Below are positions 1 through 23,898 of a stretch of 64,000 nucleotides of DNA, one piece after another. This stretch comes from Schmidtea polychroa. Its lineage: Eukaryota. The notes under the pieces are model-generated. The model was not told where the DNA came from. It made no database searches and was given only the letters and a program-made list of their open reading frames with translations. The position numbers and the translations under genes are program-made. The stretch covers positions 12,650,001 through 12,714,000 of the forward strand of contig CM097885.1 of the NCBI GenBank assembly GCA_044892525.1. Direction: 5' to 3'. Every line of letters starts with the position of its first letter. The stretch's first letter is position 1.

Positions 1-2
1 GT

Positions 3-3000
3 ATGATAGATGACGTAGTCATGATGTACGACAAAATAATATTACGGGCTGAAGGCGACACCTCGTTAAGTGAAATGGGAATGTGGGATAATCATCAAAT
101 CATCAGAATATTGCCCATGGACGAATTCCGAACAAGAGATATAACATACCAGAAAGAAATACGAGACAGGATGAAAACGCTATACCAAAAATCAGTAGAG
201 ATAATTGAAATTCATCAACAGTGGCTAAAAGAAAAAGAGCTTCAAGGAAAAATAAAGAAACTGAGTACTAGATCCTGCAGACGAACCCCATGGGAAAGGA
301 TGTGGAATGCGGAAAACAAAGAATGGGAAATCAGGAAAGGGATTTTCGTAGAAACAGACATTGGTGAGACAGAAAGTGAATCAGAAGAAGAGGAAGATGA
401 ACCTCCAAAATACGAAGAGGACGAAATAGAATCGATATCGGATGACGAAAGCGAAACGGATGTTACGTCAGAAAGTGAAACGGAAACCAGACATATTCAT
501 GCGATGAGAAAGAAAGAACGCGAATATGCTGATATGGACAGCGAAGAAGCGATGGAAGCTCGAGAACGAGAAGAGAAGGAAAGATATAAACAATTAGGTG
601 ATATCTTAGCAACGGGAGCAAAAAATCAAAAACGACAAGTAATAGCATTGGCTAACATCATCCTAAAGACATCAGAGAATATCCACAATCTAAGAGAAAT
701 GGCGAAAGCGATTGAGGAATACCGACAATATAACGAATGGTACCCAGAACAGCTAGAACAAATTATTAGGAAATGGAGAAACCAAGAATGGGCACAAGAT
801 ACCCAGGAAAGGTATCGTATCCGAGTCAAGTATCCCGACAAAAGCATTGAGGATACAGAAGTACATCCAACAACAAAGATCAGAGAGTTAAAAAAGAAAT
901 TAGCATACGAAACTCCATTTCACCTACAACTATTCGGAAAATCGTTGGATGATAATGCAGATGTCGGAATAACACCCATGAGATTGGGGGAGATCAATGT
1001 ATTGACAATGGCAGAAACATTGGGAAAACCGATTAAAAGGAAGAGCAAATCCAGTAAACCTACGAAAGGTAGCTTGAGTACACCAAGCCCTAACAAAGTG
1101 GCGAGTAAATCAAACGAAACCGAGGAGATCGAGGAGATCATATTGGAAGACAGCGATGAAGGAGCTGGGGAAAGATCACCAATTCTGGTAAGATGGCCGA
1201 CAGGGGCCGAAATATGGACAACAAGCCAACCATCAACTAGCTATCAACAACCAAATAAGCTGAACATAGAGGAAATTGTCGATAATACGACAGAAACCGA
1301 AACTGACGAACAATTTCAACGACAAAAAGGACCAACGAAAGCAATACCAGAAGGTCAAACGGACAAAATAATAGACGAATGGAATGAGTGGCTGAGAAAC
1401 AACGCTAGCTCATTGCCAAGAACAGATAACGAGAGAAACCCGAATTATGAAACGACAAGAGAAGCCGGAACAATGATGGAGAAACGGGCAAAAGGAAGAC
1501 CCAAGAAGCAAGGAGAAAAACCAGAATTTAAAACCAGAGAACAGTTGAAACAGGAACAAGGACAAGTCAGATTAGAGAAATTGGATAAAATAGTATGGGA
1601 CCTAAAAGAGGCCCAGCCAACAATCGAAAGAGGCGAAAAATGGATACGAGAGCTAGTAAAAGATATGCTAATAATAACGAACCCACAATTGCGACGGTTA
1701 TGGCAACGAAAAGTAGCAAGCGTAGATGCCAGACAGCTATGGAATACAATATCCGGAATAATTCCGAAATTAATCAAAGAGAAGACAAAAACCACTAAAA
1801 CCGATTGGGAAGAGACAAGAAGAGTAATTGAACAATTAACTTTAAACGCAAACGACGACGAACATCATTTAGTAGTATTAACGTATCTAATGTACAATTT
1901 GATGGGATTAGCAGCAAGGAAAATACCTAACAAACAATTCGCAAATCATGTAGAAATGACCGTTACAATCATTGAAAATACAATCGAACCACATATTATC
2001 CGTGCCGGTGGGTGGAAAAGACTCATACAAGCGCCACGAAAAAACGAGCAAGAGAGATCAATGCAAATTCGGTTGAAGAAATTGCTAAACGAGCTGGAAT
2101 GGGAATTGCCATTGAAAGACCCAGCCAGCAGAAAAGCGTCGATTAATTCACTAATGATGACCATGATGATATGGGTGCTCTGCACCAGTGGAGCCGCGGG
2201 ATTTACAATTTACGACTGTGACAATTCGATAATGGGAGAAAAATATTCCTTGAGGGATATAGAGGAATGTAGACAAGCATCTCCGAATAAATTGGATGTC
2301 GTGAAAAAGAAAGTCTCTTATCATGTATACCAAGAATCAGATTTTATTAGAACACAAGCAAGAGAATGCGTAGTATCAAAGAAGGTGTTGGCATATTACT
2401 GTGGACAATATTCGTATTCAACTCTTATATTACCCGGATTAGATAAAGAAATAGTACCTATACAACGAGAAGACTGTAAAGAGCTTTTTAGAACTGGAGC
2501 GATGAGAATCAGGGATGGAGTAACAATACACGGACAAAGCGGGATGATCAAGACTGAAAGCATCTATGTAGCCGGACGAGTAAAATCGACTGATGGATCA
2601 TGTAACGGAGGCACATACACGATCAGAGGAGAAGTGATCTCGGGAGTAGTAGTAATTGAGTCCTACACAGTGGAGTTGAAGGAATACGAAGCGCAATTCG
2701 ACGCAAACAACTATCAAATGAAAACCAACCCAGCATGTAGAGCCACGGAAAACGTGTGTAGAACGGGAATTTCGACTATAATCTATGAAGCTAACACCCA
2801 AAAATGCCGACTCCAATTGTTAAAAAGTGCTTTGTTCAACGAAGTAAAAGGAGAAATTTACGAAAACGAGGATGACGATGAAGAGAATGGAAACGTAAGG
2901 ATGCGAAATGGGAAACCAGTTCCACCATCCCCCAAAGAAAAGAGACTCACAACACAAAAAACACCAACGGCATTAATTACAGATGATCCAGATATCGGTA

Positions 3001-6000
3001 TGAGATTCATCAGAGAAAAAGAGACCACCAAATGTGACAGCATAGTATATCGGACGAACTACGCAGGTATTTACATGTCAAGACAAGTAATAGACCGAGC
3101 AGTGGGAAAGGTAGCAACAGAGGACGTAAAATTGTACCTGTACGCCAATAACAAAATGGACTTTTTATTCCATCGAGGACAAACGACAATGCAAAAAGTA
3201 TATTACGATCTTATACAAAATGACTGTTCATTGAATAAAGAGATACTAAAAACAAAATTAGCCATCGCAATAACACACCCAGATAACACAATGCCATCAC
3301 TCCCGTTACCGGATGGACATTTTGGTAGAATGGTGGGAGAGGTAATGTATACATATGCATGTACCAAGACGTTTGCGCGACTGCCAAGAAAGCCCACAAT
3401 TCCACCAGGGAAATGCGCAAACGAGTTGGAAATTAGTTACAAGGGGCGAAACAGATTCGTTCAACCCGTCACTAGAATTATGAACCCAATTGGATTTTAT
3501 CCGAACACCTTTAACTGTTCAAATGCATACGGACCGTTATATGAAAAACCCGATGGGAAATGGATAATGTTACCGGTAAAAACCGAAGTACAAGAGCCTA
3601 AAAAGTTTGGATTAATAGAACTCGCAACAGAGCAAGATTTCAAACCAATTGATGTGTCAAAAGCAGGTATGTACTCACCAGAGGATTTAGAAACAGCACG
3701 ACTAAACGTACTATTCCCAGCAAGGCGAGAATCCATTTTATCGAATATGGTTACCATAACCGGAGGAACAAATTTTCAATCAGGTCCAAATTATGAATTA
3801 TTATTGTCACCCGATCATTTTCAACAAGCCACGTCAAACATGATGAAAGCAATGTGGGGAAGATTTCTAGTGTTTGGTCAGATGATGGCAGGAATATTGG
3901 GAATCATCTTGATTATCCAGATTGTCAGAGTAATATTGACTCAAATGTTAGCGTGTTTTGATATCTATAAGAGGGAAAAGAAAGTAAATTGGAAATTGAT
4001 AGTAGGTTTTTTACCATTTTTGGCGAAAACAATGGTGTTGCACGGTCATTCTAAAGATATACACAGAATAAAACGATTAATCAAAATACTGACAAAAATA
4101 AAAGGGACTGACGAGGAAGTCGGTAGACGATTTCGGAAAACAATGTATGATGAAGCAACAAGGACGCAACTGAAAAAGAACAAACCAAAATTTTTAGACA
4201 GATTTAGAAATCGATCAAACAGCAGCGATAGTGATGATGATGATAACGGGAATGACAAATATCCATATCCAAGTAGAAACCCGAACGAAAGGCAAATAGA
4301 AACAGCACCATTTTGGGAGAAAGAAAAAACAAATACCTGGATAGCTAACGGGAGCTATATACCACCAGATATCGTTGGACAACAAACAGCTTTGACCATG
4401 ACACAAAATATGTATCCACAGTTACCAAGTCAACCAGGAATGAACTATATGCCAACCCGAAGAACGAAAAGCGTAGACCAAGCTGATGACGTTCGAACAA
4501 TAGCAGTAATGAGTTCACCAGGAGGCGCGGCAGTAACAGTCATGATCCAAATCAACGGGAAAGAGACAAGCGCAATGATAGATACCGGAGCAAATGTATC
4601 AGCAATAGCAATAAACCAAATACCCAGTAAATGTTGGAAAGACATCGAACAAACAACTATCCATATTATTGCATGCAGTAAAGAAACCGTAGACGTAGTA
4701 GGAAGATGGTGGACTACGTTACGATATCAAGATAATGAAATTGAAACGTATCTAGCGGTGATACCCAAACTGAGTGAACCATGTATAATCGGAACGGATT
4801 TAATGCCGGAATTGTTCAAAGAAGTAGTAATAGATCTAACAACAATGTGCCTAAAAGATAAAATGGGTAGAATATGCAAAATGAACGCAATAATCAGATG
4901 TCCGGAGAAAATAATTGTACCAGCAAAATCCCAGATGATATGTCAAATAAAAGTGGATGCAGGAATGGAAGGAGAAGCCATTTTTGAGCCAAGTAAATCA
5001 TTCGAAAAACGACGAGAATTACCATTAGCAAGAGAAATAATAACAATAAATGACGAAGGGGAAATACCAATTAACATCACAAATTTCGAGGAAGAAGACA
5101 AGATCATATATGAAAATGAAAGATTGGGTAGATTGACACCCATGATAGACATCGAATTACCAAAAATCACCAATGAAACAACGAAAGCTGACGAATTATG
5201 GATAATCGATAGCACATTGCTAACGGAAAAAGAAAAGGAAAGACTTCAACAATTATTGATAGAATATAAAGATATATTCGCTATTTCGGACTTAGATTTG
5301 GGAGCATGCGATGTTACATTACACGCAATACCATTAATAGACGAAACTCCAATCGCACTACGTCCATACAAACTAGCAGAGAAGCAAAAAGAGATAGCCG
5401 AAGCAGAAGTACAAAAAATGCTAGATGCACAAGTGATCGAACCAAGTTGTTCGCCATGGCAATTTCCAGTAGTCATGGTGAAGAAAAAAGACGGTACTCA
5501 GAGATTCTGTATCGATTATCGGAAACTAAACGCAGTAACAAAAAGAGACACATACCCGTTACCAGACATCAATGAGATGTTACTTATGCTGCAGGGGGCC
5601 GCATATTTTACGTCTTTAGATCTAAAAAGCGGATATTGGCAGATCAAAGTTAAAGAGGAAGACAAGGAGAAAACGGCCTTCACGTTGGGTCGAGACCTGT
5701 ATCAATTCAGGAAAATGCCATTTGGACTGACCAATGCCCCAGCATCATTTCAGAGATGTATGAATTTCGTCACGCACGGGATCAAGCAGTGCATGGTATA
5801 TATTGATGATTTATTAATATATTCAGCAACATTCGAACAACATTTGGAAGATATCAGAAACGTGTTCGTTCGATTACGACAATGGAAATTGAAACTCAAA
5901 CCATCAAAGTGTGATTGGGCAAAAGAAAAAGTTACGTTCTTAGGACACATAGTGTCAGCAAAAGGCAAAGAACCAGATCCAAGAAACATAGAAAAAATAA

Positions 6001-8390
6001 AAACATGTCCAGCACCAAAAACTGTCACCCAAGTTCAAGAATTTCTCGGATTATGCGGATATTATCGAAAATTCATCAAAAACTACGCAGGTATTGCGAA
6101 ACCAATACAGGAATTAGTGAAAAAGGATATTTCATTTATTTGGGGTGCAGAACAACAAAAAGCATTTGAGACATTGCGAGATAAATTAATTGAAGCCCCA
6201 ATACTGGTACATCCTGATTTCAAGAAACCGTTCTTATTAGCAACAGATGCAAGTGGATATGCAGCCGGAGCAATATTAGGACAACTGGATGAAGAAGGAA
6301 AAGAAAGAGTGATTGGATACTACAGCAGAACGTTTAAAAAGCACGAGAAAAACTATTCCGTAACCGAGAGAGAAGCGTTAGCAATTATACAAGCGATTAA
6401 ACATTTTCGATATTTGTTATGGGGACACGAAATATGTATCACCACAGATCACCAACCATTAGTATGGCTCGGTCAGCATAAGGAGGCGTCAAGCAGATTG
6501 ATGCGATGGGCAATGCAGTTACAAGAATATTCACCGTTCATAAAATTCAAAGCGGGAAGAGCGAATGCCAATGCAGATTGTATGTCAAGATTTATCTTTC
6601 CAGATTTAGTAGATCACGAAATGCAACGAATATGTCTGATGGTGGCGGAAGATTTAGATTTTTGCCAATTACGGAAAGACCAACAAGAGGATACAGAGTT
6701 GAAGCAAATCATTGAATATGTGAAAACAGGGAAAGCAGAGGTATATGAGAAAGATCAAAAATTGAAGGAGCATATGGATAAACATCGACATCGATATATA
6801 ATAGAGAAAGATTGGTTATTGATAATGGATGGCGAGAAAAGACTGATGTGCATTCCAGAAAATAGACGTAAAGATTTGCTAACGCAATATCATGACGGAA
6901 GACTCGGAGGACATATGTCATCCAAAAGGACGTTAGCCCGAATGAAACAAAAGTATTTTTGGCCTACCTTGACCGAGGATGTAACGGAATGGGTGAAAAA
7001 TTGCATAACTTGCGCCACCAGAAAAAACACGGGAACAAAATGGAAGGCACCATTAAAGCCAATGCCAGTACCAGCAGAACCAATGACAATGATATCTATG
7101 GATGTAGTCGGTCCATTACCAGAATCAGATAGAGGGAATATATATATATTGGTGATTACGGATTATTTGACGAAATTCCCCGAAGCATTCGCTATGGCAG
7201 ATCAGAAAGCAAGAACAATCGCGAAAATACTAGTAGAGGAGATATGCTGTCGATATGGAACACCAAAACAGATATTAACTGATCAAGGAACAAATTTCAT
7301 GAGTGAAATAATGAGCGAAGTCACCAACTACTTCAAGATCGCAAAATTAAGAACATCACCGTACCATCCACAAACTAATGGTATGACAGAAAGATTCAAT
7401 GGAACATTGATTCAAATGTTATCAAATTATGTCGATCGTCACCAACGGGATTGGGATGAGTATATAAAATTGTGTTTAATGGCTTACAGAATGTCAATTC
7501 ACGCGTCCACAAAGATGAGTCCGTTCAAGTTGATGTACGGCAGAGAATGCAATATGCCAATGGATTTAGAATATCAGCCACCAATATCACAGTATATGGA
7601 AATAGATGATTATGTAACCAAGTTCAAGGAAAGAATGCAAGAAATCTGGGAAACTGCGGGATTAAATATAAAGTTTTATCAGGAAAGTTACAAAGATCTG
7701 CATGATAGAAAGAAAAACGTTAAACAACATACATTTCAAACCGGTGATTGGGTGATGATCGAAACACCAGAATTAATTCCAGGAACCACCAAAAAATTAC
7801 AACGAAACGGCAAAGGTCCGTATGAGATTCTATTCGTCGGAGAAACCAATGTGAGAGTACGATTGGTAAACAACCCCTTCACGAGGCCAATATATGTAAA
7901 CGTGGCACGATGTAAGCCAATACCGAAAACAGCCACCAGCCAGCCGGAAGGGCGAACATTAACAACAAGATCACAAACGTATAGAATAAATATGTTACAG
8001 CAGATAAACGAACCAACAGGTAACCGATTGGGGTTACAACCATCAGAAGCCGAGAAAATCATAAAGGAAGTGAAAGCTAAAATGCCCGGATGGGCAAAAG
8101 ACAGATTAGATTTTGAGATATTGGGAGGTCTGCTAACCATGATCGAAAACTATGCAAACCGAGAAAGAACACACCCATTACTCAGGGTAGTAAAAAGTCA
8201 ATGGCCTATATTATTTACGATCACAGACCATTATGGAGATACACCGCTGCACAAACTTTTAAAGGTCGGGAATAATGAACAAATACTGGAAACGATCGAA
8301 GCATTTCGCGACTGTAACATTTCGACGGATCAAGAAAACAACCAAGGTTACACTCCACTAATGATAGCAGCCAATCGGGATAAAGCTTAA
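3..8390 (+). CDS. pol: Retroelement polyprotein (UBL, Bcl-2-like, glycoprotein, aspartic protease, RT, RNase H, integrase, start of ankyrin repeats); frame open at window start
   Basis: AMIDTGANVS (DTG at 4581), RFCIDYRKLN, LDLKSGYWQ, MPFGL, YIDD (5799-5810), ATDASG, H-x6-H...CxxC, DVVGP/TDQG/ERFN integrase motifs, GPY motif. Confidence 0.97.
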   Translation: MIDDVVMMYDKIILRAEGDTSLSEMGMWDNHQIIRILPMDEFRTRDITYQKEIRDRMKTLYQKSVEIIEIHQQWLKEKELQGKIKKLSTRSCRRTPWERMWNAENKEWEIRKGIFVETDIGETESESEEEEDEPPKYEEDEIESISDDESETDVTSESETETRHIHAMRKKEREYADMDSEEAMEAREREEKERYKQLGDILATGAKNQKRQVIALANIILKTSENIHNLREMAKAIEEYRQYNEWYPEQLEQIIRKWRNQEWAQDTQERYRIRVKYPDKSIEDTEVHPTTKIRELKKKLAYETPFHLQLFGKSLDDNADVGITPMRLGEINVLTMAETLGKPIKRKSKSSKPTKGSLSTPSPNKVASKSNETEEIEEIILEDSDEGAGERSPILVRWPTGAEIWTTSQPSTSYQQPNKLNIEEIVDNTTETETDEQFQRQKGPTKAIPEGQTDKIIDEWNEWLRNNASSLPRTDNERNPNYETTREAGTMMEKRAKGRPKKQGEKPEFKTREQLKQEQGQVRLEKLDKIVWDLKEAQPTIERGEKWIRELVKDMLIITNPQLRRLWQRKVASVDARQLWNTISGIIPKLIKEKTKTTKTDWEETRRVIEQLTLNANDDEHHLVVLTYLMYNLMGLAARKIPNKQFANHVEMTVTIIENTIEPHIIRAGGWKRLIQAPRKNEQERSMQIRLKKLLNELEWELPLKDPASRKASINSLMMTMMIWVLCTSGAAGFTIYDCDNSIMGEKYSLRDIEECRQASPNKLDVVKKKVSYHVYQESDFIRTQARECVVSKKVLAYYCGQYSYSTLILPGLDKEIVPIQREDCKELFRTGAMRIRDGVTIHGQSGMIKTESIYVAGRVKSTDGSCNGGTYTIRGEVISGVVVIESYTVELKEYEAQFDANNYQMKTNPACRATENVCRTGISTIIYEANTQKCRLQLLKSALFNEVKGEIYENEDDDEENGNVRMRNGKPVPPSPKEKRLTTQKTPTALITDDPDIGMRFIREKETTKCDSIVYRTNYAGIYMSRQVIDRAVGKVATEDVKLYLYANNKMDFLFHRGQTTMQKVYYDLIQNDCSLNKEILKTKLAIAITHPDNTMPSLPLPDGHFGRMVGEVMYTYACTKTFARLPRKPTIPPGKCANELEISYKGRNRFVQPVTRIMNPIGFYPNTFNCSNAYGPLYEKPDGKWIMLPVKTEVQEPKKFGLIELATEQDFKPIDVSKAGMYSPEDLETARLNVLFPARRESILSNMVTITGGTNFQSGPNYELLLSPDHFQQATSNMMKAMWGRFLVFGQMMAGILGIILIIQIVRVILTQMLACFDIYKREKKVNWKLIVGFLPFLAKTMVLHGHSKDIHRIKRLIKILTKIKGTDEEVGRRFRKTMYDEATRTQLKKNKPKFLDRFRNRSNSSDSDDDDNGNDKYPYPSRNPNERQIETAPFWEKEKTNTWIANGSYIPPDIVGQQTALTMTQNMYPQLPSQPGMNYMPTRRTKSVDQADDVRTIAVMSSPGGAAVTVMIQINGKETSAMIDTGANVSAIAINQIPSKCWKDIEQTTIHIIACSKETVDVVGRWWTTLRYQDNEIETYLAVIPKLSEPCIIGTDLMPELFKEVVIDLTTMCLKDKMGRICKMNAIIRCPEKIIVPAKSQMICQIKVDAGMEGEAIFEPSKSFEKRRELPLAREIITINDEGEIPINITNFEEEDKIIYENERLGRLTPMIDIELPKITNETTKADELWIIDSTLLTEKEKERLQQLLIEYKDIFAISDLDLGACDVTLHAIPLIDETPIALRPYKLAEKQKEIAEAEVQKMLDAQVIEPSCSPWQFPVVMVKKKDGTQRFCIDYRKLNAVTKRDTYPLPDINEMLLMLQGAAYFTSLDLKSGYWQIKVKEEDKEKTAFTLGRDLYQFRKMPFGLTNAPASFQRCMNFVTHGIKQCMVYIDDLLIYSATFEQHLEDIRNVFVRLRQWKLKLKPSKCDWAKEKVTFLGHIVSAKGKEPDPRNIEKIKTCPAPKTVTQVQEFLGLCGYYRKFIKNYAGIAKPIQELVKKDISFIWGAEQQKAFETLRDKLIEAPILVHPDFKKPFLLATDASGYAAGAILGQLDEEGKERVIGYYSRTFKKHEKNYSVTEREALAIIQAIKHFRYLLWGHEICITTDHQPLVWLGQHKEASSRLMRWAMQLQEYSPFIKFKAGRANANADCMSRFIFPDLVDHEMQRICLMVAEDLDFCQLRKDQQEDTELKQIIEYVKTGKAEVYEKDQKLKEHMDKHRHRYIIEKDWLLIMDGEKRLMCIPENRRKDLLTQYHDGRLGGHMSSKRTLARMKQKYFWPTLTEDVTEWVKNCITCATRKNTGTKWKAPLKPMPVPAEPMTMISMDVVGPLPESDRGNIYILVITDYLTKFPEAFAMADQKARTIAKILVEEICCRYGTPKQILTDQGTNFMSEIMSEVTNYFKIAKLRTSPYHPQTNGMTERFNGTLIQMLSNYVDRHQRDWDEYIKLCLMAYRMSIHASTKMSPFKLMYGRECNMPMDLEYQPPISQYMEIDDYVTKFKERMQEIWETAGLNIKFYQESYKDLHDRKKNVKQHTFQTGDWVMIETPELIPGTTKKLQRNGKGPYEILFVGETNVRVRLVNNPFTRPIYVNVARCKPIPKTATSQPEGRTLTTRSQTYRINMLQQINEPTGNRLGLQPSEAEKIIKEVKAKMPGWAKDRLDFEILGGLLTMIENYANRERTHPLLRVVKSQWPILFTITDHYGDTPLHKLLKVGNNEQILETIEAFRDCNISTDQENNQGYTPLMIAANRDKA
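810..1010 (+). other. Ubiquitin-like domain within polyprotein
   Basis: YRIRVKYPDKSIEDTEVHPTTKIRELKKKL...QLFGKSLDD follows the ubiquitin pattern (I.VK...; V.P..TI..LK.KI; L.F.GK.L.D). Confidence 0.65.
1600..2040 (+). other. Bcl-2-like helical domain within polyprotein
   Basis: BH2-like EPHIIRAGGWKRL, preceded at Bcl-2-like spacing by a hydrophobic helix HLVVLTYLMYNL; canonical NWGR of BH1 absent. Confidence 0.55.
2148..3960 (+). other. Env-like glycoprotein (class III fusion / chuvirus-G-like): internal signal, Cys-rich ectodomain, TM anchor
   Basis: Signal LMMTMMIWVLCTSGAAG then FTIYDC...YSLRDIEEC; ~550-aa Cys-rich ectodomain; TM MMAGILGIILIIQIVRVIL. Confidence 0.75.
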
Positions 8391-11219
8391 GATATTATTA
8401 TCGCATTACTTGAAACTGGGTCAAAGATAACCACACAAGATCACAACCAGAAAAATGCACTACATCATGCAATCGAAGGGAAAAGTACGAAAGCCTTCAT
8501 AATCTTAGTAGATCTATTATCATACGAGGATAATAGGGAGATAGGAAACATGTATGACGGGCTATTAACTGCAATCAAAGAGAAATTAATAACAATTGCT
8601 GGATTACTAATTGCATGGAGGAACCCGATCAAAAACGATTATATGGTAGATATAAACGAAACATTTACCAAAGGAGAAAACACCTTGATGAGAGAAGCGA
8701 TGAGAGGACATCACCTATTCGAAATTCCAAATCAACTACTACAACGTGGCATAAAGTTCTCAAATCACAAAGACGAACAACTAATTAGAAAACGAATTAC
8801 CAACTTCGAAAAAGCTATATCTCAATTTACCGATAAAGTACAAGTAAAATTTTGGGAAACCGTGAGTGTATTATATATGATGGAAAATATGAATAACATT
8901 CGAGAAACTTACCTAAGCATTATTCAAGTTCTAACGGCAGAGGAACGCATTAACAGTTCGAACAAGAAAAAGATAAAAATCAAGAAAATAACAGCAAGGG
9001 AGTCTGAGAAACAAGTCAATCAAATAATAAGCGATATAGCAACAACAAGTAAACCAAAGATAATAAACTCCGACCAAGAGATAGTAGTACGTAAGGCTAA
9101 AGAAGTATTCTTGGAAGAAATGCAAGATCTATCCGATGAAGTGATACTAGCAAAAATAACAAAAACAGTACACACCTACGCAAGAGACCAGACCACAAAT
9201 CTAGACATAGGAAAAATAAAAACATTTATACCACTCGCATTCACCTTACCAACAAAAGATTCAAGAACACCATTACAACAAGCCATTTTAGCAGCAAAAG
9301 AAAACAGAGCAATAACCATCATAAGAATTCTTAGAGACTTCGGAGAAGAATCTAATGCAAAAAATGAATAAGGAGAAACAGCAATGATGTATGCAGCAAT
9401 AACAAAGATACACCCGAAAACCTTACATATACTACATCAATCAGGTTCGAGACTTGACGAAATATCAAACGAAGGAAATTCTACCATGGATTGGGCAACA
9501 ATACAACCAAACTTGGAAATGATTAGATTCATTTGTAAAAATGCTACAAGAACTGAGGTAGAAAATATCTGTAAAAACACGTCACAGTTCCAATGGAACA
9601 CGATACGGATGAACTTAGAAGCCATGAAGTTATTGCTAACATGGAAAATACCGCAAAGCAATAAATATGCAATAAATATAAATGAGTTCTACGAAAACGG
9701 AGAAAATGCTATGGTTAAAAATACACTAACAAAAGGAGGAACTCCGAAAATCATAATGATCGTATTGAACAGAGAAGACCTCAAATTCACGCAAAATCTA
9801 AACGAACAAAAGCGAATCGGAAAACATCGCCGTATACAATTGAGAGAACTGGTAAAAGAATGGAATAGAAAGAGACATGTAGCAACAGGCAGAAAAGAGT
9901 TTGAATTCGAAGCAAAATTAGCAAGAAACAGAGTGCTAACGGCATACCGCAGATTGTTGAATGATATAAATGTCGAGGACGACATTTTAAACGATAGCGG
10001 GGGAGATGAAGACGATAAAGACGACGATAATAATGAAAAAGGTCGAAACGGGAATAAAGAGAAAGAGAAATCAGAGGAGAATAATCAAGAAAATAACGAC
10101 GCGAGTAGGAAAAAAGAGGAAAATAACCCGGGAAACCGAATGAAGCAAGAAGAAAAGACGAATAGTGGAAAACAGAGGGTATGCCTACTTTTTACCAACA
10201 AAGAAATGGAGACAAATATGATGATAATGATACTCGTATTAACAATGGTGGAAATGATAACAGCCCAGGGAGGAATGAGAACGATAAAAGAAGCCAAAGA
10301 AACGGAAAATAAGGACAACAAAGAGGAAGAACTAAAACAAGAAAAGAAAAAACAAGTACAAGAGCAGCAATGGGATCTAAAAGAAGAATGGGATTTAAAA
10401 GAAAGGTGTATATTAGGAAGATGTATGTCTAGAGCTTATCAGAGACTAGTGTTAAAAAATGAAGATGCAGAACCAATAACGGAAGTGGGAATACAAGAAG
10501 CGTACCAACATCGAAACGGGAAGAAGATAACAAAAGTCAAATGGAAAGAGGTACACCTGAGTAAAGGAGGTGAAATAGTGATAACACAGCTTCAACCAAG
10601 AAAAGAGCACAAAGTGTGTATTTCAAGGCTAGGCCCAGGAGAAAATTGTCTACAATATGTAACGCAACAACAACCACCAAAGGAATATACGGTCTGTATC
10701 CTGAGAAACGGTCCAGAAAGAGAATGTCGACGATACCCTGGGAAAAGAGGGAAGAAAAGAAAAATCAATGACGAAAAAGATGAGCAAGGAAAACGCAAGA
10801 AAACCAGTGAGAAACATCAGGACAATTATGTATCCGAGGAGGAGATGGAGAAAATACAAAAAATGGCAAAGGAAGGTATGAACGAGGAAATAGCAAGAAT
10901 ACGAGGAATGATAAAAGGAAATGGCAAAGACGGTAATCTAAAAAGCACAGAGGCAATATCAACAATAACGAACAAGGAAAAAGCGGAAATTATAAGCGTG
11001 AAACAGATGATGTGGATCAGCGGCATAATAATAACAGGGGCCTTTTTAATCATAACGAGGGGGACAATAAAAATAATCAAAGATAGACGGCATCGCGGAG
11101 AACTAGAAATGGCCAGAATAAGAAATTTTCAACATCGTGTAAAACGACCAAGTAATATCAAGCGGGAACAGTGGGTGGAGGCCTGGAATGCTCAGCGCCC
11201 TCCAAGCTCACGTATATAG
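8391..11219 (+). pseudogene. In-frame continuation of the polyprotein: ankyrin repeats, acidic linker, second signal peptide + ectodomain + TM; broken by TAA at 8388-8390 and 9369-9371
   Basis: ORFs starting 3, 8550 and 9384 share one frame; stops fall inside ankyrin repeats (GYTPLMIAANRDKA*DIIIALLETGS; SNAKNE*GETAMMYAA). Confidence 0.85.
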
Positions 11220-11387
11220 AAAGGATTATGACTGTATATAGATTGTAAAAAGTAAGTAGATAATATTTATTTATATAACAGTATGATATATTTTTATATA
11301 ACCGCGGTATCAATATTATATAACGATGGGGATAAATAATATAAAAATAAAATTGGATAAGGGTTGAAAAGTATATATAAATTAAGA

Positions 11388-11747
11388 ATGGAGCGAATAG
11401 GCGAGGAAGTAAATCACAGTACGACAACCGAGGAGATGTGGAAACAACAATGTGCAATGTTAACTCAAGTGATTTCGAATTTACAGGAACAAGGACTCGC
11501 TGTACAAAGAAGCTTAGTCGAAAGTTTAAATAAAGGCTTCAGTTATGTAAGAATAATCGAAGACCAACGAATAAAAATAGAACAAATGCAGCGAGAGATA
11601 GACCGAATATCACGACACAGCCAGGTGCAAGAAGAGGAGTTAATAAGAATCGCGGAAGAGATGGAGCGAGAGGAGATAGAAGACTGGTCAGAATGGTTAA
11701 CCAGTAGGGAAGAGGGCGGACAAGAGGCCGACTCTTCCAGCCAATAA
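11388..11747 (+). CDS. Accessory coiled-coil protein of the retroelement
   Basis: ATG at 11388 within ORF 11364..11747; E/Q/R-rich heptads; composition like the polyprotein. Confidence 0.6.
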   Translation: MERIGEEVNHSTTTEEMWKQQCAMLTQVISNLQEQGLAVQRSLVESLNKGFSYVRIIEDQRIKIEQMQREIDRISRHSQVQEEELIRIAEEMEREEIEDWSEWLTSREEGGQEADSSSQ

Positions 11748-11836
11748 ATATAACCTAAAATAGCAATGTAAATAACTGTAAATAAAAATACGAAACTGTA
11801 CCAGTAACGAATATATGTATATATATAATTATAGAA

Positions 11837-13225
11837 ATGGATAAGCGACAACGAGAAGAATTCAAAGAAATTGTTGAACAAGTCAGAAAGTCCACCACAA
11901 TTCGAATACACAACCATGTAACGTGTGGAATATGCAAGAGCTTATTAAGAGAACCTCACCAAACCAGATGTGGATGCAGAATGTGCAGAGAATGTGTAGA
12001 GGAGATAATAAAGAAGGGACCACAATGGTGCCCAGTATGTAAAGAAACCATGATAGCAAGTTTGGGAGATACAAACGAAGATAAAGCAGCCGTGAAAGAT
12101 ATGTTAAATTCAAATTTAGGATGTAAAAACACCCCATGCAATTGGCGAGGAGTGATATGGGAAGTGAGGCAACATATGGAGCAATGTGAGTATAAAATCA
12201 GTCAATGCAAACGTTGCCAAGAAGAGATTAAAGTCAATGAAGAAGCAGAACATCAAAGTCGATGCGAAGAAAGACTGGAGAAATGTGAGTATTGCGGAGA
12301 AACCGACACCTGGAAAAAACTAATCAGTCAACATCACAACATACAAGAGGAGAAAGTGTGCGCAGGGTTCAGAGGAGAATGTCCCAATAAATGCGATAAA
12401 TCTGGAGTAATAAGACTCGCTCAACATCTCAGAGAATGTGAAAGGAAAAAGATAACGTATGTGCTAGGAAAATGGGGATGTCAGAAACAATTACACCGAG
12501 GAGAATTACTCCAACATCTAGCAGAAAACGTATCAACACACGCGGAAATATGGTCAACGGTATTACAAGAAAACGAAAGGAAAACCGAAAACTTAGAGAA
12601 AGAAATGGTCTCGCTAAAAGCGTTGGTAAAAGAGTTATTGGAAGAAAAGGAAGCATTTGAAGGGGCGAGAACAAGTACAAAGATACAGACAGATCTAGTG
12701 GAAACTAGCAACATTATGGTGAAAGAACTACATCAAAAAGTAAGCGAATTAAACCTCAACGAATTAATACCAACGGCTCCATACATATGGAAAATAACGG
12801 GAGTAAAAGAGAAGATGCAGAGAGCGAGAAATGGAAAGGATACAACATTACTAAGTCCAGCATTCTACTCATGGAAAAACGGGTATAAAATGAAAATGAA
12901 AGCATACCCCAATGGGGATGGAAGTGCATACGGAACGCATTTCTCAGTATTCTTCTTGATGTGCAAAGGGCTATACGACGAGTTAATAGAATGGCCATTC
13001 AAAGCAAAAATAGACCTCGCAATGATGAACTATCAAAGTATACATGAACAGAGTTTCCATACAGCGGGAAACCTCGTATGTTACCAAAGGCCCTTGGAAG
13101 AAGAAGGACCAGCAACTGGAGCACCGAATTTCATCCTACAGCGGAAAGTAGAAGACATGACGAGAAACGACACTATATACATAAAAATAGCGGTGAGGCG
13201 AGACGGGAAGAGTAGGACTGAGTAG
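11837..13225 (+). CDS. TRAF-like protein (RING, TRAF zinc fingers, coiled coil, MATH), intronless
   Basis: CGICKSLLREPHQTRCGCRMCREC...CPVC; CKNTPCNW; MATH YIWKI...LLSPAFY...GYKM...YPNGDGS.YGTHFSVFF...EWPF...DTIYIKI. Confidence 0.95.
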   Translation: MDKRQREEFKEIVEQVRKSTTIRIHNHVTCGICKSLLREPHQTRCGCRMCRECVEEIIKKGPQWCPVCKETMIASLGDTNEDKAAVKDMLNSNLGCKNTPCNWRGVIWEVRQHMEQCEYKISQCKRCQEEIKVNEEAEHQSRCEERLEKCEYCGETDTWKKLISQHHNIQEEKVCAGFRGECPNKCDKSGVIRLAQHLRECERKKITYVLGKWGCQKQLHRGELLQHLAENVSTHAEIWSTVLQENERKTENLEKEMVSLKALVKELLEEKEAFEGARTSTKIQTDLVETSNIMVKELHQKVSELNLNELIPTAPYIWKITGVKEKMQRARNGKDTTLLSPAFYSWKNGYKMKMKAYPNGDGSAYGTHFSVFFLMCKGLYDELIEWPFKAKIDLAMMNYQSIHEQSFHTAGNLVCYQRPLEEEGPATGAPNFILQRKVEDMTRNDTIYIKIAVRRDGKSRTE

Positions 13226-13443
13226 AGAGACGAATAATTTTGTATATACTAATTGTAAATATCGGCATATATACCCCGTAAAATATTATATAGTAGTGTA
13301 GAAAAATCCCCCAAATCTACTAAAGGTAAACTTAAGCGTAAAACTCCTAAAACAACTCCTATAACGAATTGTAAAAATAAATAAATAATAAACCAGATAT
13401 AAGCGTACAACGTTGAGTTAATGATATCGTTATTTAGACAAAG

Positions 13444-14480
13444 ATGACTCAAGATCAAACGGAAGCCCCAAATAACGAAATAAACATCAGTAGAATACAT
13501 AGAGAAAGATGGGCCAAAGTGATGGCACAATTATCAAATCAAACACGAAATTACCTCGAAGAAGCGAGAGAATGGGAAAACCACCAGTTCCAGTGGTTAG
13601 TACAGAATTTACGGACGGAGGCCGAGGCCTGCAAAAGAGCCGCCAAATGGTCTGCATTAGAAAATACCAGGCAAGAGGCACACGGGCATTACCTGAAGCA
13701 GCTGGTACAGGAGTCAAGAAAAAGACTAACGGATGAGAATAAGAAGCGGGAAATAGAAAAACAAAAGGGGAACGAAAGACCCGCCAACTATTAGCAGAAG
13801 CCAGAAAGTGGAAAAAACAACATATAGAAATCCAAAAAGAGATGAGAGAATTGCCGCAGAGATTGGAACACGAGAGTGATCAAGGGAAATGGGAAGAAAA
13901 CCGGGATCAGAAAGAAGAGCTAAGAAGGCTCCGGAAAGTAGCAGCTAGAAGTCAAACCTGGCAGACCAAGGCCATGGAATTTGAAAAGCATCTGGCCATG
14001 AAACTGTCCATGAAGGAACAGGAGAATACCGCCATGGAAGAGATGATCCTGCAACAGTCAGGTAGAATCGTCGAACTCGTAAACAAGGTGGCAGACCTTG
14101 AAAGAGACAATAACGGCTATAAGGGGGCACTAGAACAAAGGAATATAGTGCTAGCCGGTAAGAACAAGAACTTGGAAAACGAGAGGAAGATGTATGACGA
14201 AAATATCAAGAACCTCGAAAAGGAGATCAAAAAATGGGAGAACGGCGAAAAAGCGGAGGAGTTAGAAAAACAGATAGAAGTAAGAGATGATGAAACCAGG
14301 TATCTGACATACCTGTTAGACGAGGAACTCAACGTGTCAAGAGCGCTAAGAGACGAAGTTCAGGAGCTTAGAGCGCAGATTCCCCGGTACTACATCCCAT
14401 TCGATCCCATCGCAATCCAACTACAAACGTCAATAGACAGCGATGAAGGGTATGTAGGCCAGGAAGAAACCTTTGTATAA
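13444..14480 (+). pseudogene. Accessory coiled-coil protein, probably one gene split by a frameshift near 13770-13790
   Basis: ORFs 13444..13794 and 13842..14480; the second frame is open upstream (LLAEARKWKKQH), echoing YLEEAREWENH in the first. Confidence 0.55.
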
Positions 14481-14531
14481 AGATAAGGAGAAAAGATAAA
14501 AAAAAAATATAAAAAGCGGGACCTGTATCCC

Positions 14532-14557
14532 AAAAAAAAAAAAAAAAAAAAAAAAAA
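14532..14557 (+). repeat. Poly(A) tract (A26) in accessory-gene spacer
   Basis: Direct reading. Confidence 0.9.
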
Positions 14558-14672
14558 TTATTAGTACGATAAAAATATTTACGGGACTGTAACCCTGATT
14601 ATATAAAATTACCTATAAATGTATAAGTATAAGCCGCACTGTAGCGCACTATTAATTGTAAATATTGTAGAA

Positions 14673-15380
14673 ATGAAAATAGAAGAAATATCCACCATGA
14701 CCGAGCTAGAAGAGGGAGAAATTGAAACAGACCCCATAAAAATGAAAACGCCGAAGGACGAGTTGATAGAGGAGAAACAGGAAAAAGAAAGGATGATAGA
14801 CAAATATATGGATGATCGAAGAATGATAAAGGTGCTAAAAAGGGAATGCAAAACATTGGAGGAAATAAAGAAAGAAGTAGAAGTAGAAAACGAATGGCTT
14901 CACGAACAAAGAAAGCGAGGGAGAAACTGGGAAAAGATCGCGGAAGAATTATGGCAGGAGAGAGCCAGTTTCAAGGCAAACGAAGTAATTGAAGATTATT
15001 GGAAAACGGAAGCAAGGAAACGACAAGAAACCATCAAGGAGTTAGAAAACCAGCTGGAAGTAAAAGTACAAGAAAGTACAGAAATGGAGAAATGGAATAG
15101 TAAATATCGAGAAATAGAAACAAAACGGCAGAAACAAAACTCAAAGACAAACGACCCAGAGGAACATGATTTCCTACAATGGGAACTGGAACGGAACCTG
15201 AAAGAAAAGAAGAAGGAGATAAAAACCTTGAAAAGAGAGATAAGACACTTGACAGACAAGGTCCACGAGAAAGAGAGACAACTAGAAATGTTGCCGGAAC
15301 TCCGACATAGAGTCATTAAAGCGGAGTCTAAATTAATGCGAATCCGGGAGAAAAACCCTAAAAAGAAACGACAAAATTAA
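14673..15380 (+). CDS. Accessory coiled-coil protein with basic C-terminus
   Basis: ORF 14619..15380, likely ATG 14673; long E/K heptads; ends KNPKKKRQN. Confidence 0.65.
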   Translation: MKIEEISTMTELEEGEIETDPIKMKTPKDELIEEKQEKERMIDKYMDDRRMIKVLKRECKTLEEIKKEVEVENEWLHEQRKRGRNWEKIAEELWQERASFKANEVIEDYWKTEARKRQETIKELENQLEVKVQESTEMEKWNSKYREIETKRQKQNSKTNDPEEHDFLQWELERNLKEKKKEIKTLKREIRHLTDKVHEKERQLEMLPELRHRVIKAESKLMRIREKNPKKKRQN

Positions 15381-15424
15381 AACCGACAAAAAGCGATGTA
15401 TATAAATGTGTATAAAATTACTAA

Positions 15425-16099
15425 ATGTATATCAGTAGTATGAGAAACAAACCGATCATAGTAATCCTGATGATGACGATAGTCCTTGATCTGGCAAGGC
15501 GACAACCCGTAAAACCCGAAATTGAACATATTCGAGACAGCAGAAAACCCAACCAAAAGACCGAACCAACAGCCAAATCATGCATCTATCCAAGTATCAT
15601 AAAAACCCGTCTTACCGACAATATTCGAGCCACCCGAACGTACGTCAACAATATCAGATTAATGTGTAATAACCACCCCATGTGCAAAATTATTGATAAA
15701 AGAATCCTGGACCAAATTCACCAACTCGATCAGCTGGAACAACAGGTCCAACATCAAGAAATACAAAACCCAGTCGAACCAGTAGAAATCGCCAAAGAAA
15801 TAAATGACCACCATGAACTCCTCTACGTAGTAATCGTCGAAACCACCGTAATCATGGTAATCATCCTCCCAAAAATCCATAATATCTACCAAGTTTGGAA
15901 GAAAAGTCACCCCGTACCGGAAAGATCGTCTCGAAGATCCCAAGAAGCTAATATGGCTGACGTAATCCAAGAAAATCTCCGACAACGAACCTCCATCGCA
16001 GAAACAGTCAGACCGTCCACAAGTCGCCGAATATACTACAACATCGAAACCCAACCACCAAATCACCCATCATCAATGGCAACCGAACAACAAACATAA
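15425..16099 (+). CDS. Accessory predicted membrane protein
   Basis: N-terminal hydrophobic IIVILMMTIVL, three Cys, TM-like LLYVVIVETTVIMVIILP, cytoplasmic tail. Confidence 0.6.
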   Translation: MYISSMRNKPIIVILMMTIVLDLARRQPVKPEIEHIRDSRKPNQKTEPTAKSCIYPSIIKTRLTDNIRATRTYVNNIRLMCNNHPMCKIIDKRILDQIHQLDQLEQQVQHQEIQNPVEPVEIAKEINDHHELLYVVIVETTVIMVIILPKIHNIYQVWKKSHPVPERSSRRSQEANMADVIQENLRQRTSIAETVRPSTSRRIYYNIETQPPNHPSSMATEQQT

Positions 16100-16354
16100 C
16101 ATTTCGAACTGTAACTATTCACAAAATTTTTGCTGTTTTATTATCTTCTGATGAAACCGGTCACCTTAAGTGGCCACTGCTTGCTTATATTTGTCATTTT
16201 CTCTGTTTAATTAAAGTATTTTTGTGTTAATTTGATTTTATGTTTGTGTGGATTTTGATTGTGAGATTATGGGTTATACCGAAAGAAGGTATGATCTAAA
16301 TGTATGATATTGTGTGAATTGCGGGACGCAATTTTAACGGCCCCCGGAGTGATT

Positions 16355-17114
16355 TGTTGGGCCAAGCTCTGAAGGTGTTGGAAAAACGAACCCAGGAAGA
16401 GACAGAGTAAATAAAATAAAAACATATAAAAATTACGAGAAATATAGGAAGAAACAAATTAAACATCCATAAAGAGACAAGAATAACTAAATAAAATAAC
16501 AAAACCTGTAAAGGGGAAATAAGACAAAAGGGAAGGCACCCAATGAGCATAACAGTAAAAGAGAAATAAAATGGCACAAAATTTAAGAAAAACAAATGAA
16601 AATTAAAGGAAAACAAAATAAAAATAAAATCATCCATAAGGTTAATTAAAACAAAAAATGAAGTTACAATAAAATAGCAATAAAACCACAGAAAAATAGG
16701 AGAAAAATAATAAAAAATAGGAAAATAAATAAAACAATAATAGAAATAGGTAGGGTCATTAAAATATAATATACTACGATAAGAAAAACATAAAATAATA
16801 ATAAATAACAAAATTACAAGCAAGGTGTGTCCTGATTGGACGGAAAATAATATATAAAGAGCAACCAAACTCTGTAGAGTATCATTCTAACCCGAAACTC
16901 TACAGGTAAAATTTATTTAAAAATTATCATTCTAACCCGAAACTCTACAGGACGAAACTAGGAACCACTCACGAGCACAGACTTACGAACGATATTCATA
17001 CTTGGACATAACAGATAGTACTTAGAGGCAAATAATAGTCGAGATCGAATCCAGTTGAGAAGAACCAGTCTAACTAAGGAAAAATTTGACAAAACTTTGA
17101 TTTCAATCCCAACA
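16355..17114 (+). repeat. Probable 3' LTR (760 bp)
   Basis: 7-bp inverted termini TGTTGGG/CCCAACA; internal TATATAAA near 16850; ~27-bp internal duplication (16880, 16925); 5' LTR not in window. Confidence 0.6.
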
Positions 17115-19290
17115 CCTTCGGAGAATTTTGGTAAATTATGTTTTGAATTTTAGTATGATAATTTTAATGTTTACTATGAATTTAATATCAAAAGACGTTT
17201 TATGTTTCAATAAAATTTATATTTAAAAACAAAAGATGTTGCTTTCTCTCTATGATGCTGGCGACGACGCCTTTTGGAGTTCGGGTATGATGCGGCTAAA
17301 TTACGTGTGCATTTCAGAGAGAGCTTATGAATATGAATACCCAGAAATTGAATTGACAGAACCAGCCAAGGATCTACATGAACTTGGGTACTATGATGAT
17401 TACTTAATGAATGTAAAAATGTACGATGGCAAGAGTCATCATACCCGGAATCCAGATGGCGTGGTCGCTAGGTAAACGTTTATTTATTTGATTTTTCTTT
17501 TAATTTCATTATTCCCATATTTGTTTGACAGTAATATGAATTTATTAATTGTACATTTATTGGAGAAGGATTTGAGATAAGTCGGGTCGAGTTGTCCTTC
17601 ACGACGGTCCAAGGGCAGTGGGCAGAAATGCGTACTGTCCTTGGGTGGGTTGTGAGGGGTGAGGAAACCCTGTGAGAGAAAACGAATCGAGTCAATGATC
17701 TTTCCATCGAGTGCTATCTATAAAATTAGCCGTCGAAAGCTTTCTATTGAGGAAACTTCTGAGCGATACTGTTTCGATGCCGACAACGTGCTGACCGAAA
17801 ATTCTAGGAGATCGACGACATTTTTCGAGATTTAATCCGAGTTTGAGTTTGGCTATATTCAATTCAGAGCTAAGTTACTTCTTTTCGTCAGAATGTGAAT
17901 ATCGACTATCCTTGAGGGTAATGAAATTCTCGAACTTCACTGATAATTCTAACGTCCATTTTCGTTTCTTGATGAATGATAAAAATCTAGAATATTCTAT
18001 ATTCCTAAGAATTGATAAATTAAGAGAACGTTAGCGATTAAACCCATCGCGGTGATATGTCAGTTGACGAGTAGGAGACTTAATTATCAACCTTCGATTA
18101 GCTGCTGTCATCGATAAGAATTTGCCCTGACAGAAAAGTAAATAGCAAAGTTCTAATTAATCATAGGTACTTACTACAGTCCTAAAGGAAATTATCAACG
18201 ACCATTTCGAACAAATTATCGATAAATTTTCCATCTGATCGAGAAACGACTATTGCAGGGAAGCAAGTAGCGTAGATAAAATATCCCAGCAGTTCGATTG
18301 TGGAACGACATGCGCCAAATCGATGAGACGATTAGGTTTTTTGAGAATAGTCAACATTCACGAGAGAGACAGGAGTTAAATCCATTCTTACCCGGTAACA
18401 GATTTGGGCAATCTTGAAATCATAACAATCGTTACTTCTATAAGCCGGACTCATTATCTTCCATCCGTCTAGCCCATCTGCTAGTAATGTTATAACTGAG
18501 ATAAGCAGACCCAAACCCATACACAGATAAATCCACTAATACATGGGACGTGAGTGAGTCGACATCATCATTGCGTCATAGTAGAATGTGTTAGTAGGCA
18601 TGCATAAATAAGCGACGAGATCAAAGTACACTAACAGACACAATGTCTAGAATTTGTTAAGAGAGGACAGCGATAATTGAGTAAAACGAGATAATACACA
18701 TTAGCGCACATCAGGTAGAGTCTGAAACCAGTACACAACTACATACCGATACGCGTCGTTATGACAACATGAAATGCGAAAATTTAAATAATTAAATTAT
18801 AATTTATGAGGGAAATTAATACTAATAATAATTTTTAACAAATTCGTTTTAACCTAACACAGCGCAAAAATGCATCAACAGCATGGAACTACTTCTTTTA
18901 AATTAAAGCAGGCATAACTCAATAAGCCATAAAAACCAGGGAGTAGACCCACCTTCAATAGGTCATAATAAATAAAAGTAAAAAAATATATTAGTGGTAA
19001 GGAGTAACTTATTGCGATTAGATGATAACTGTCGACCCAGGAACCTAGGTACAATATCAATATGGGTAGAGAAATAACGTGTGATGGTTCTCATTTTCTC
19101 TTCATTACGAACGATGTGATGAGTTGATTTGAAGGTTTACGGTTTGGATGAGTTAAGTGATGTCAAAGGTATGGATGTGGGGGACAATCCTGATTGTATG
19201 CATATGTGGTAGGATAAAGCCCACGATAAAAAGAAAATAAATAGTAGAAAGGATTTTAATGATGTAAATAACGGACTTCTCATTCTTTAG

Positions 19291-20052
19291 ATGACTACTC
19301 CTACAACTGCTGAGAAAACTCTTCGCCCATGTTTCTCCTGCGCGGATAAAAATGCAGATATCGCGCAGCTCCATCTATACATCGGGGCTTTAAAGAAAAG
19401 AATCGACCTTTACGAAGGCACGTGGTTCTCCCCGCCACAAATGAAGGAGGAACGAAAGAAAATCCTCCGGTTAGAACATTGTAAAGATAGCTTGCTGGAG
19501 GAAAGCCGATGCCAACGGCTTACAATCAAAGCCCAATCAGAAGCCCTCCACAAGGTTTATACGGAGGCAGAACTCGCCAAGCGGGTACGGGAATTTCCCG
19601 TCATAGAGAAAATGAACGTTTTCCCTCTTCATCATCAAGTATCCGAACCGACTGCTACGAGCCGCCAAGGGCATGGATCGTGCCTACCGCCCATTCCAGC
19701 TCCAATCTTATCGGGTTCTCAACCCTTGGTAGGTAGACCTACCGAGCCCATCTTGGCTCCAATCTTGGGGGCAACCGTCGTCACCCCGCACACTGACAAT
19801 CCCCCGTCGTCTCGCAAACGGAAACGGCCGATCCGAGCCGAGAAAAATCAGAAACGCCGAGATGCGATGGCTGCTCTCGAGGCGTCACTATCTGTAGCTC
19901 AATCTACCATAAGAGAAATATCCTCCAGCCATTCCATCCCATCAAAGGAAATCTTTCGTGTAATACCGGCAGAAGGCATCAAGTACATTTCTAACCCACG
20001 ACTGCCGGTCGATATCGACGCAATGCTTGCGGATGGAGAACCCTTCGATTGA
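19291..20052 (+). CDS. Hypothetical protein (CxxC, coiled coil, Pro-rich, NLS-like RKRKRP)
   Basis: 253-aa ORF in GC-elevated DNA, preceded by acceptor-like CTTTAG. Confidence 0.5.
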   Translation: MTTPTTAEKTLRPCFSCADKNADIAQLHLYIGALKKRIDLYEGTWFSPPQMKEERKKILRLEHCKDSLLEESRCQRLTIKAQSEALHKVYTEAELAKRVREFPVIEKMNVFPLHHQVSEPTATSRQGHGSCLPPIPAPILSGSQPLVGRPTEPILAPILGATVVTPHTDNPPSSRKRKRPIRAEKNQKRRDAMAALEASLSVAQSTIREISSSHSIPSKEIFRVIPAEGIKYISNPRLPVDIDAMLADGEPFD

Positions 20053-20595
20053 TCAATTCAAAGGTGCCTTGTTCTATGCATGGTCCCGAAGTGAACTTGC
20101 GTGTTTATAAATGCTGTATGTTTGCATGTAAAACAGTTCTTGATTATTCTGCGTGTAATGATTTGTTATAAGTTAATAAATCTTTTATTGTTTCTGATGA
20201 TTGATTTTAACAGGTGAGGTATCGAAGTTGATACGAGTGAAAAGATGATGTCGAATTAGGTGATAATACAAGGTCGTCCCCTTGGACCAGGGTCGGACCG
20301 AATTGTGTATGTAGGACTGGGTAAGACCTTCTAAGGCACCATAGAACCCGTACCGAGAAAGGGTTAGGAGTAGTCTTAAGGCAGAGGCTCACCTGCTAAC
20401 CTTTTCCAACCCGTGTGGGCAGCACCAACGTGGAACACCACCACGGGCCCATGCGTGGGAATATGTACATGATCATTTGGTGTATGTATGGGGAGTATCT
20501 GAGCGGAGTAATGATGCAGGGTGTGTGAGATGATGATGTGTGCAATAATTTCTTTTTCCCCACATATGCCAACAATAATAATTCAGTATTTTTCC

Positions 20596-20600
<5 letters not shown>

Positions 20601-20660
<60 letters not shown>
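20601..20660. repeat. (AAT)n microsatellite
   Basis: Direct reading. Confidence 0.95.
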
Positions 20661-20664
<4 letters not shown>

Positions 20665-20942: not shown

Positions 20943-21074
<132 letters not shown>

Positions 21075-23807: not shown

Positions 23808-23898
23808 TTTAGTACAACTTCATCATTATACGACACAGATATTTTGAGTTGAAGAATCATTCACCTTCGCTGACGAATTATATATTGATAAACTTGAT

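Follow-up and report, generated by a model that had tools for sequence, protein, structure and literature searches.

A full-length TRAF gene 3' of pol in a probable Burro-type gypsy element of Schmidtea polychroa

The window analyzed here, a stretch of 64,000 nucleotides of the Schmidtea polychroa genome, opens inside a giant reading frame on the forward strand (3..8390) that is open at its 5' end, with gag lying outside the window. This frame holds an envelope gene, the enzymes of a gypsy element and the first ankyrin repeats. The envelope is a mononegavirus-type fusion glycoprotein (PF24664, E = 2e-72, best stretch 2952-3971) placed in frame before the protease, and Pfam locates protease, reverse transcriptase, RNase H and integrase within 4539-7370, in the gypsy order and inside the same giant ORF. 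A spacer of 220 residues separates the protease from the reverse transcriptase, and Pfam gave no match in 4770-5240; the dUTPase-like segment published for this place in Burro was called with HHpred. Closer to the start, the polyprotein shows weak ubiquitin-like (819-923, E = 0.019) and Bcl-2-like (1863-2015, E = 0.028) matches. The succession ubiquitin-like, Bcl-2-like, envelope and protease is that of Burro, with the ubiquitin-like and Bcl-2-like matches, as well as those to ankyrin (E = 8e-5 to 7e-3), all falling below the Pfam cut-off. A MATH domain was not found in the visible part of the polyprotein, and a word-index search with the Bcl-2/envelope region returned no match.

The frame of the polyprotein continues as an ankyrin-containing tail (8391..11219), broken by stops at 8388-8390 and 9369-9371. 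We aligned contigs from four sequencing runs to positions 7000-17600; runs X1, X5 and X7 represent three studies, and X1 may be the source of the window itself. The stop at 8388-8390 was found in none of the contigs aligned there. Downstream lie five accessory ORFs, all on the forward strand. The first encodes a likely coiled-coil protein of 119 residues (11388..11747; Pfam match sub-threshold), and the second is the TRAF gene (11837..13225). The third, formed by two overlapping ORFs that are probably one coiled-coil gene (13444..14480; no Pfam match), has its frame broken near 13,770 in the window copy. It is followed by a Lys/Glu-rich ORF of 235 residues (14673..15380; no Pfam match) and by a predicted membrane protein of 219 residues (15440..16099) in which two hydrophobic stretches, one of them N-terminal, were recognized by eye. 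The exact sequences of six window ORFs were absent from the collection that was searched, and Rfam gave no match over 11000-21000.

The element appears to end in a putative 3' LTR (16355..20574, forward strand), whose start at 16355 is fairly clear and whose end may lie at 17114 (7-bp terminal inverted repeat) or at 20574 (6-bp). Since the window contains a single LTR and the element runs off its first base, the call rests on the terminal inverted repeats and on a contig depth that approximately doubles over 16204-16911 in run X1; contigs or joints from other element copies extend across 17114. The TRAF ORF is thus located 4.4 kb 3' of the integrase core and 3.1 kb 5' of the putative LTR start. 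An earlier, sequence-only reading had placed it between pol and the LTR, and the interval is right, with the refinements that pol is not its direct neighbour, that it belongs to a set of five accessory ORFs, and that the LTR remains putative, being single.

Several further features were observed in and around the LTR. In two contigs of run X10, which we guess to be RNA, a run of 14 T precedes position 16219; it may stem from a polyadenylated antisense transcript of the LTR. A tandem duplication at 16876-16953, just after a TATA-like box in the LTR, creates a segment of about 46 nt of the form GT...AG that resembles a mini-intron. A 253-residue ORF on the forward strand (19291-20052), with unbiased codons, an AG abutting its ATG and no Pfam match, lies within the longer candidate LTR or in a flanking repeat. 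Elsewhere in the window, positions 43647-58567 are occupied by a Polinton/Maverick with terminal inverted repeats of about 830 bp, a polymerase-like ORF, an A32 ATPase, a double-jelly-roll capsid and an integrase with a phospholipase A2-like domain. More Polinton-like remnants, including a RING gene (21311-21871), extend over 21311-34713, with a Tc5/pogo-like DDE transposase inserted among them (30754-32116, forward strand), and a tandem array of 6-14 nt units at 61640-62190 has long open frames on both strands.

The giant planarian gypsy elements known as Burro or GYPSM1 (Jurka 2007; Grohme 2018) have been summarized by Arkhipova and Yushenova 2019 (PMC6431247). They share with the element described here one huge ORF, an in-frame mononegavirus-type envelope, the protease-reverse transcriptase-RNase H-integrase order, MATH_TRAF_C cargo, accessory ORFs and a high copy number; the ubiquitin-like, Bcl-2-like and ankyrin segments of Burro have sub-threshold counterparts here. 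The element is thus very probably a Burro-type gypsy, known here from its 3' part; the region in which the CCHC-knuckle gag and the second LTR of Burro, an element longer than 30 kb, would be expected is beyond the window. Platyhelminth errantiviruses of GAG-ENV-POL order also carry their envelope before pol; unlike the window element, their envelope is of the gB type, and TRAF, ankyrin and accessory genes receive no mention in the main text of their description (PMC13524379).

The TRAF ORF runs as a single open frame from an ATG at 11837 to a stop at 13225, encodes 462 residues with no internal stop and can be read without any intron. It comprises a RING (11924-12040), five zinc fingers (12122-12541), a coiled coil (12530-12751) and a MATH domain (12782-13195). 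Pfam recognizes the C3HC4-type RING at residues 30-68 (E = 1e-4, passing the cut-off) and the MATH domain at residues 316-453 (E = 7e-25); its zf-TRAF profile gave no score on the protein. A count of ligands nevertheless places Cys or His at 27 of the 28 zinc-binding positions. All eight are present in the RING, where Cys47 stands at the position at which TRAF2, 5 and 6 carry the usual His, and 19 of 20 are present in the five fingers, which form a TRAF-type array; in finger 5, the first ligand is replaced by Tyr208.

Structural comparisons led to the same assignment. When solved structures were searched, the C-terminal half matched best TRAF3 and TRAF2 (E = 5e-28), and the N-terminal half TRAF6, TRAF5 and TRAF2. 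An AlphaFold model built on an alignment of 36 rows has a mean pLDDT of 91.6 and displays one 74-residue helix (232-305) followed by the MATH sandwich. Foldseek searches with this model returned TRAF domains, and an Atlas look-up confirmed the TRAF assignment. The architecture, RING-type and TRAF2/3/5-like with the C-terminal coiled coil and MATH present, places the ORF in the TRAF family; the gene, called complete and intact in the sequence-only reading, is whole and close to intact. Within the MATH domain, several positions of the peptide pocket differ from TRAF2; the SSS of TRAF2, serines of the peptide pocket, is aligned to LVC. The changed pocket is in part like that of triclad TRAFs.

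We then asked whether the gene belongs to the element. At four-fold sites, the TRAF carries 82 A and 10 T of 144, close to the 352 A and 68 T of 613 in envelope plus pol (chi-square p = 0.44) and different from the 16 A and 12 T of 42 in a host RING gene of the same window (Fisher p = 0.0004); a Polinton polymerase, used as a control, has 108 A and 100 T of 238. The silent sites of the TRAF are of the element type and not of the host type, which bears out the A-rich, element-like codon usage noted previously.

The contigs aligned to 7000-17600 number 12,678 (X1), 4,250 (X5), 693 (X7) and 176 (fourth run), with identities of 82-100%. The ratio of summed depth between TRAF and integrase is 1.05 in X1, 0.34 in X5 and 0.57 in X7. 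Depth over the TRAF reaches about 560 times (X1) and 140 times (X5) the median depth of a long single contig, values that are a rough indicator and no copy number. Diverged contigs covering the TRAF occur in the runs of three studies, ruling out that it is present in this copy only; the TRAF is carried by multiple element copies and is not a one-copy accident. It is extremely unlikely that a host TRAF locus was simply caught between two fragments of the element. With a single LTR in the window there is no target-site duplication to compare, a point in favour of such a locus, but the A-rich strand skew is unbroken over positions 1-17,000, the codons of the TRAF are element-like, contigs over it are in high copy, and single contigs in both X1 and X5 link the spacer upstream of the TRAF to adjoining element sequence.

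A full relative search with the TRAF protein returned 5,622 matches. Among the 150 of these that were listed, 100 carry the RING pattern, with Cys as fourth ligand in 20 and His in 80; the owners of the Cys-type RING include three named Dendrocoelum lacteum TRAFs and one crinoid protein (P0053). In view of this crinoid sequence, the Cys-for-His exchange is typical of triclads without being unique to them. An insertion in finger 3 is present in the query and in seven other flatworm-side rows and is absent from the fish row. The best full-length relative among the matches listed is an unnamed protein with 37% identity, and a word-index search returned 17 distant TRAFs (24-29%).

In a quick tree of 49 rows, the query groups with P0021, P0028, P0033 and P0085 with a support of 100. 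These four are unnamed UniParc entries rich in Lys, Glu, Ile, Arg and Thr; the match of the last three to the query ends before the MATH domain, and a word-index search with P0021 gave nothing new. A careful, unrooted tree was calculated from 30 rows, the other 19 being left out partly for their long branches. There, a split supported at 97/92 sets 18 rows against 12. The larger side holds, among others, the query, the three Dendrocoelum TRAFs and Dugesia TRAF-2A, and the smaller side has fish and crinoid TRAFs among its members; P0028 and the query are sisters (98/95). No single host parent paralogue was picked out by the trees or among the matches listed.

The named triclad TRAFs (Dendrocoelum lacteum TRAF-2, -4 and -5, Dugesia japonica TRAF-2A, and Smed-TRAF-1/2 and -2A/B) resemble the element protein in architecture, in the finger-3 insertion and in a Cys before the YxRP motif of MATH, and the Cys-for-His RING is seen in the three Dendrocoelum proteins. 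They differ in that identities are 25-33%, and in that the element TRAF has element-type silent sites and sits in the separate Lys/Glu/Ile/Arg/Thr-rich clade of five sequences. From these comparisons, the gene was likely taken from a flatworm host on the triclad side. The host origin suggested by the sequence-only reading is hence upheld by the 97/92 grouping together with the common RING exchange and finger-3 insertion.

A viral source such as an iridovirus or a giant virus is very improbable. Viral TRAF-like proteins do exist and match the model, and the envelope of the element is itself virus-like; those matches, however, have identities of 11-28%, and both the triclad peculiarities of RING and finger 3 and the tree lead to flatworms. 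Four pattern matches in viral contigs yielded no confirmed relative, in a search that reaches close relatives only, and among 67 pattern matches in metagenome contigs none was confirmed as a close relative.

The control gene used above (39974..40948, reverse strand) encodes a RING, a TRAF zinc finger and a coiled coil, and has three predicted introns of 42-50 nt. It displays the same Cys-for-His RING, and its placement in the trees is variable: open in the 49-row tree, beside the element clade in another (support 99), and at 83/49 in the 30-row tree. No MATH domain was found for it in the window, and it looks like a truncated TRAF-like gene (40948-39974). It also bears on the earlier inference that this intronless TRAF was retro-captured. 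The ORF indeed lacks introns, but this is weak evidence taken alone, since the predicted introns of the control gene lie only in its coiled coil, leaving RING and finger in one exon there as well.

A second case may exist. In the database protein P0031, an N-terminal segment is 42% identical over 38 residues to the integrase tail of the window element (pairwise E = 3e-6) and leads in frame into a TRAF that extends from RING to MATH and clusters with Dugesia TRAF-2A (99/97). This arrangement suggests an independent second TRAF capture by another gypsy element, or else a fused gene model.

Whether the TRAF is maintained was addressed with single-letter differences among copies. We considered the 40 best-supported of 2,175 differences, 5 of these 40 falling inside the TRAF, in a list biased to well-supported sites; 38 could be classed, one of the others lying outside ORFs and one in a stop codon. 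Among these classed differences, those that segregate across the element comprise 12 silent and 14 replacement changes, against 27% silent expected (p = 0.03), and those nearly specific to the window copy comprise 0 silent and 12 replacement changes (Fisher p = 0.007 relative to the segregating ones). Within the TRAF, the same list contains 3 silent changes and 1 replacement that segregate (p = 0.06), plus one replacement specific to the window copy. None of the best-supported 12 of 88 indels is in the TRAF.

The open frame of the window copy proves little in itself, given that under a neutral drift of 1-2% it would stay open with a chance of 0.28-0.53. A contig of 342 nt and about 88% identity extends gap-free across RING and fingers, its own frame not being visible; after neutral drift to 10%, the chance of a stop-free frame is 0.002. 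At 12923, X1 and X5 both show the loose end of a diverged variant in which, as judged by eye, the strand T-H-F-S-V-F is kept across three silent changes while the preceding loop differs. Some copies have TRAF deletions (two joints, one contig each), and one X5 contig has 10 gap letters. The window copy is itself decaying, with two stops, a frame break and Tyr208.

Taken together, the sequence comparisons suggest that the family of copies is under purifying selection and that the window copy is dead and decaying. The strongest argument is indirect, and lies in silent sites that are fully at the element bias while the ligands, the core of MATH and the frame are still kept. An improbable alternative is that the TRAF is a neutral passenger, a host gene recently transduced and still open because the family is young. 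The p value of 0.06 for the TRAF alone, the deleted copies and the decay of the window copy are all compatible with such a passenger. A full shift to A-rich, T-poor silent sites, however, takes the element many replication cycles, over which ligands and frame have survived, and the element-type relatives are merely 37-41% identical, as befits an old lineage. That the gene is kept by selection is likely: three of the four listed segregating TRAF changes are silent and none of the top 12 indels touches the gene, but the p value is 0.06 and these counts are not a real dN/dS.

The accessory ORFs are separated by five AT-rich spacers of 59-218 nt (within 11220..15439) that hold eight sense-strand copies of TGTAHATA, compared to a mean of 0.75 in shuffled sequences, none of 1000 shuffles reaching eight; the sense strand of the 11.2 kb polyprotein has none. 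Spacers and 3' region contain 21 TGTA, far more than the shuffles. The motif would pass for a Pumilio element, a signal for 3'-end processing or a Forkhead site. Seven more copies were observed at 28906-29099. The idea of one poly(A) signal per ORF finds no support, AATAAA not being enriched in the spacers (5 versus 7.0 expected).

Every accessory ATG is preceded within a few bases by an AG that follows an AT-rich tract. A gene located 3' of pol needs an RNA of its own, and we infer that expression of the TRAF would rely on a subgenomic RNA, spliced or trans-spliced at the AG that closely precedes the TRAF ATG. No joint indicating splicing onto the TRAF start was present among the 15 of 91 joints listed. 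The TRAF has little or no coverage in run X10 and is uniformly covered in X7, neither of which tells expression.

TRAF pieces have been described before in elements of this kind. MATH_TRAF_C is already a listed Burro cargo, found in the Burro1 polyprotein and in an upstream accessory ORF of a Dugesia tigrina element (PMC6431247), a published trait which the sequence-only reading had missed. What differs from both of these is a whole gene with RING, five fingers, coiled coil and MATH, placed 3' of pol within a cassette of five ORFs. Such a gene is not described in section 7 of PMC6431247, and Grohme 2018, Jurka 2007 or the Burro-2, -3 and -4 elements may show it. Three further papers (PMC8532177, PMC11410931 and PMC13238120) name Burro and, in their available text, not its cargo.

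Our preferred explanation, which we hold with some confidence, is that a full-length TRAF is a separate accessory gene in many Burro-type copies, likely an old capture of a host mRNA, that is likely selected and that encodes a predicted adaptor and ubiquitin ligase blunting death or immune signalling. The capture from a flatworm mRNA would have taken place long ago by template switching during reverse transcription, and purifying selection on the element would retain the gene. Through its coiled coil and MATH domain the protein is predicted to form trimers, and its domains predict an adaptor with E3 ubiquitin ligase activity that may dampen the death or innate-immune signalling of cells in which the element is replicating. 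The pro-survival direction is drawn from the accompanying cargo (Bcl-2-like and ankyrin, and BIR in published Burro) and from the survival role of planarian TRAFs. Domains of apoptosis and ubiquitin pathways, BIR among them, are over-represented in Burro cargo (PMC6431247), and planarian TRAFs are needed for cell survival (PMC7586133).

A less probable but still serious alternative is that the protein is selected as a decoy or redirecting adaptor, one that poisons host trimers, aims ubiquitin at a restriction factor, or promotes death and release. The diverged MATH pocket and the 25-33% identity to named triclad TRAFs would fit this role, and cell exit may matter to an element that carries a fusion glycoprotein. 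A comparable capture is known from megalocytiviruses, where ORF111L of ISKNV is also a host TRAF that a mobile genome acquired, and likewise combines RING, coiled coil and MATH; it differs in belonging to a DNA virus of fish, in its 296 residues and in its independent origin, and it binds TRADD and induces apoptosis through caspase 8 (PMC3352826). By analogy with this pro-apoptotic protein, and in view of the changed pocket, a decoy or redirecting role is possible. A pure decoy, however, would need neither the RING nor the five fingers, both of which are kept, and the co-cargo of Burro is of the anti-apoptotic type (PMC6431247).

The element copies may also bear on how planarian TRAFs are counted. 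Between 99 and 282 planarian MATH/TRAF transcripts or domains have been reported and treated as host genes (Swapna 2018, PMC6109357; Ziman 2020, PMC7586133). The available text of Swapna 2018 names neither Burro nor transposons as a TRAF source, "Burro" occurring there only within Burrows-Wheeler, and that of Ziman 2020 has no occurrence of "transpos" and does not name elements as a source. Our literature search found no paper tying the planarian TRAF expansion to elements, PMC6431247 alone being relevant. It is plausible that element copies could inflate the reported counts. A broader proposal, which we advance tentatively and consider rather doubtful, is that much of the planarian TRAF/MATH expansion consists of accessory genes of gypsy proviruses, derived from at least two captures from different triclad paralogues (the window lineage and P0031) and expressed from a 3' cassette that resembles an operon and whose spacers share motifs; Burro would then be an analogue of complex retroviruses, with a set of tools of its own for host signalling. 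Should a full TRAF be present in hundreds of proviral copies, then gene counts, lists of wound- and irradiation-response genes, and RNAi off-targets would need to be re-sorted. Interference of Burro with host apoptosis and ubiquitination is a published idea that is unconfirmed (PMC6431247), and the TRAF described here offers one compact protein with which it may be tested.
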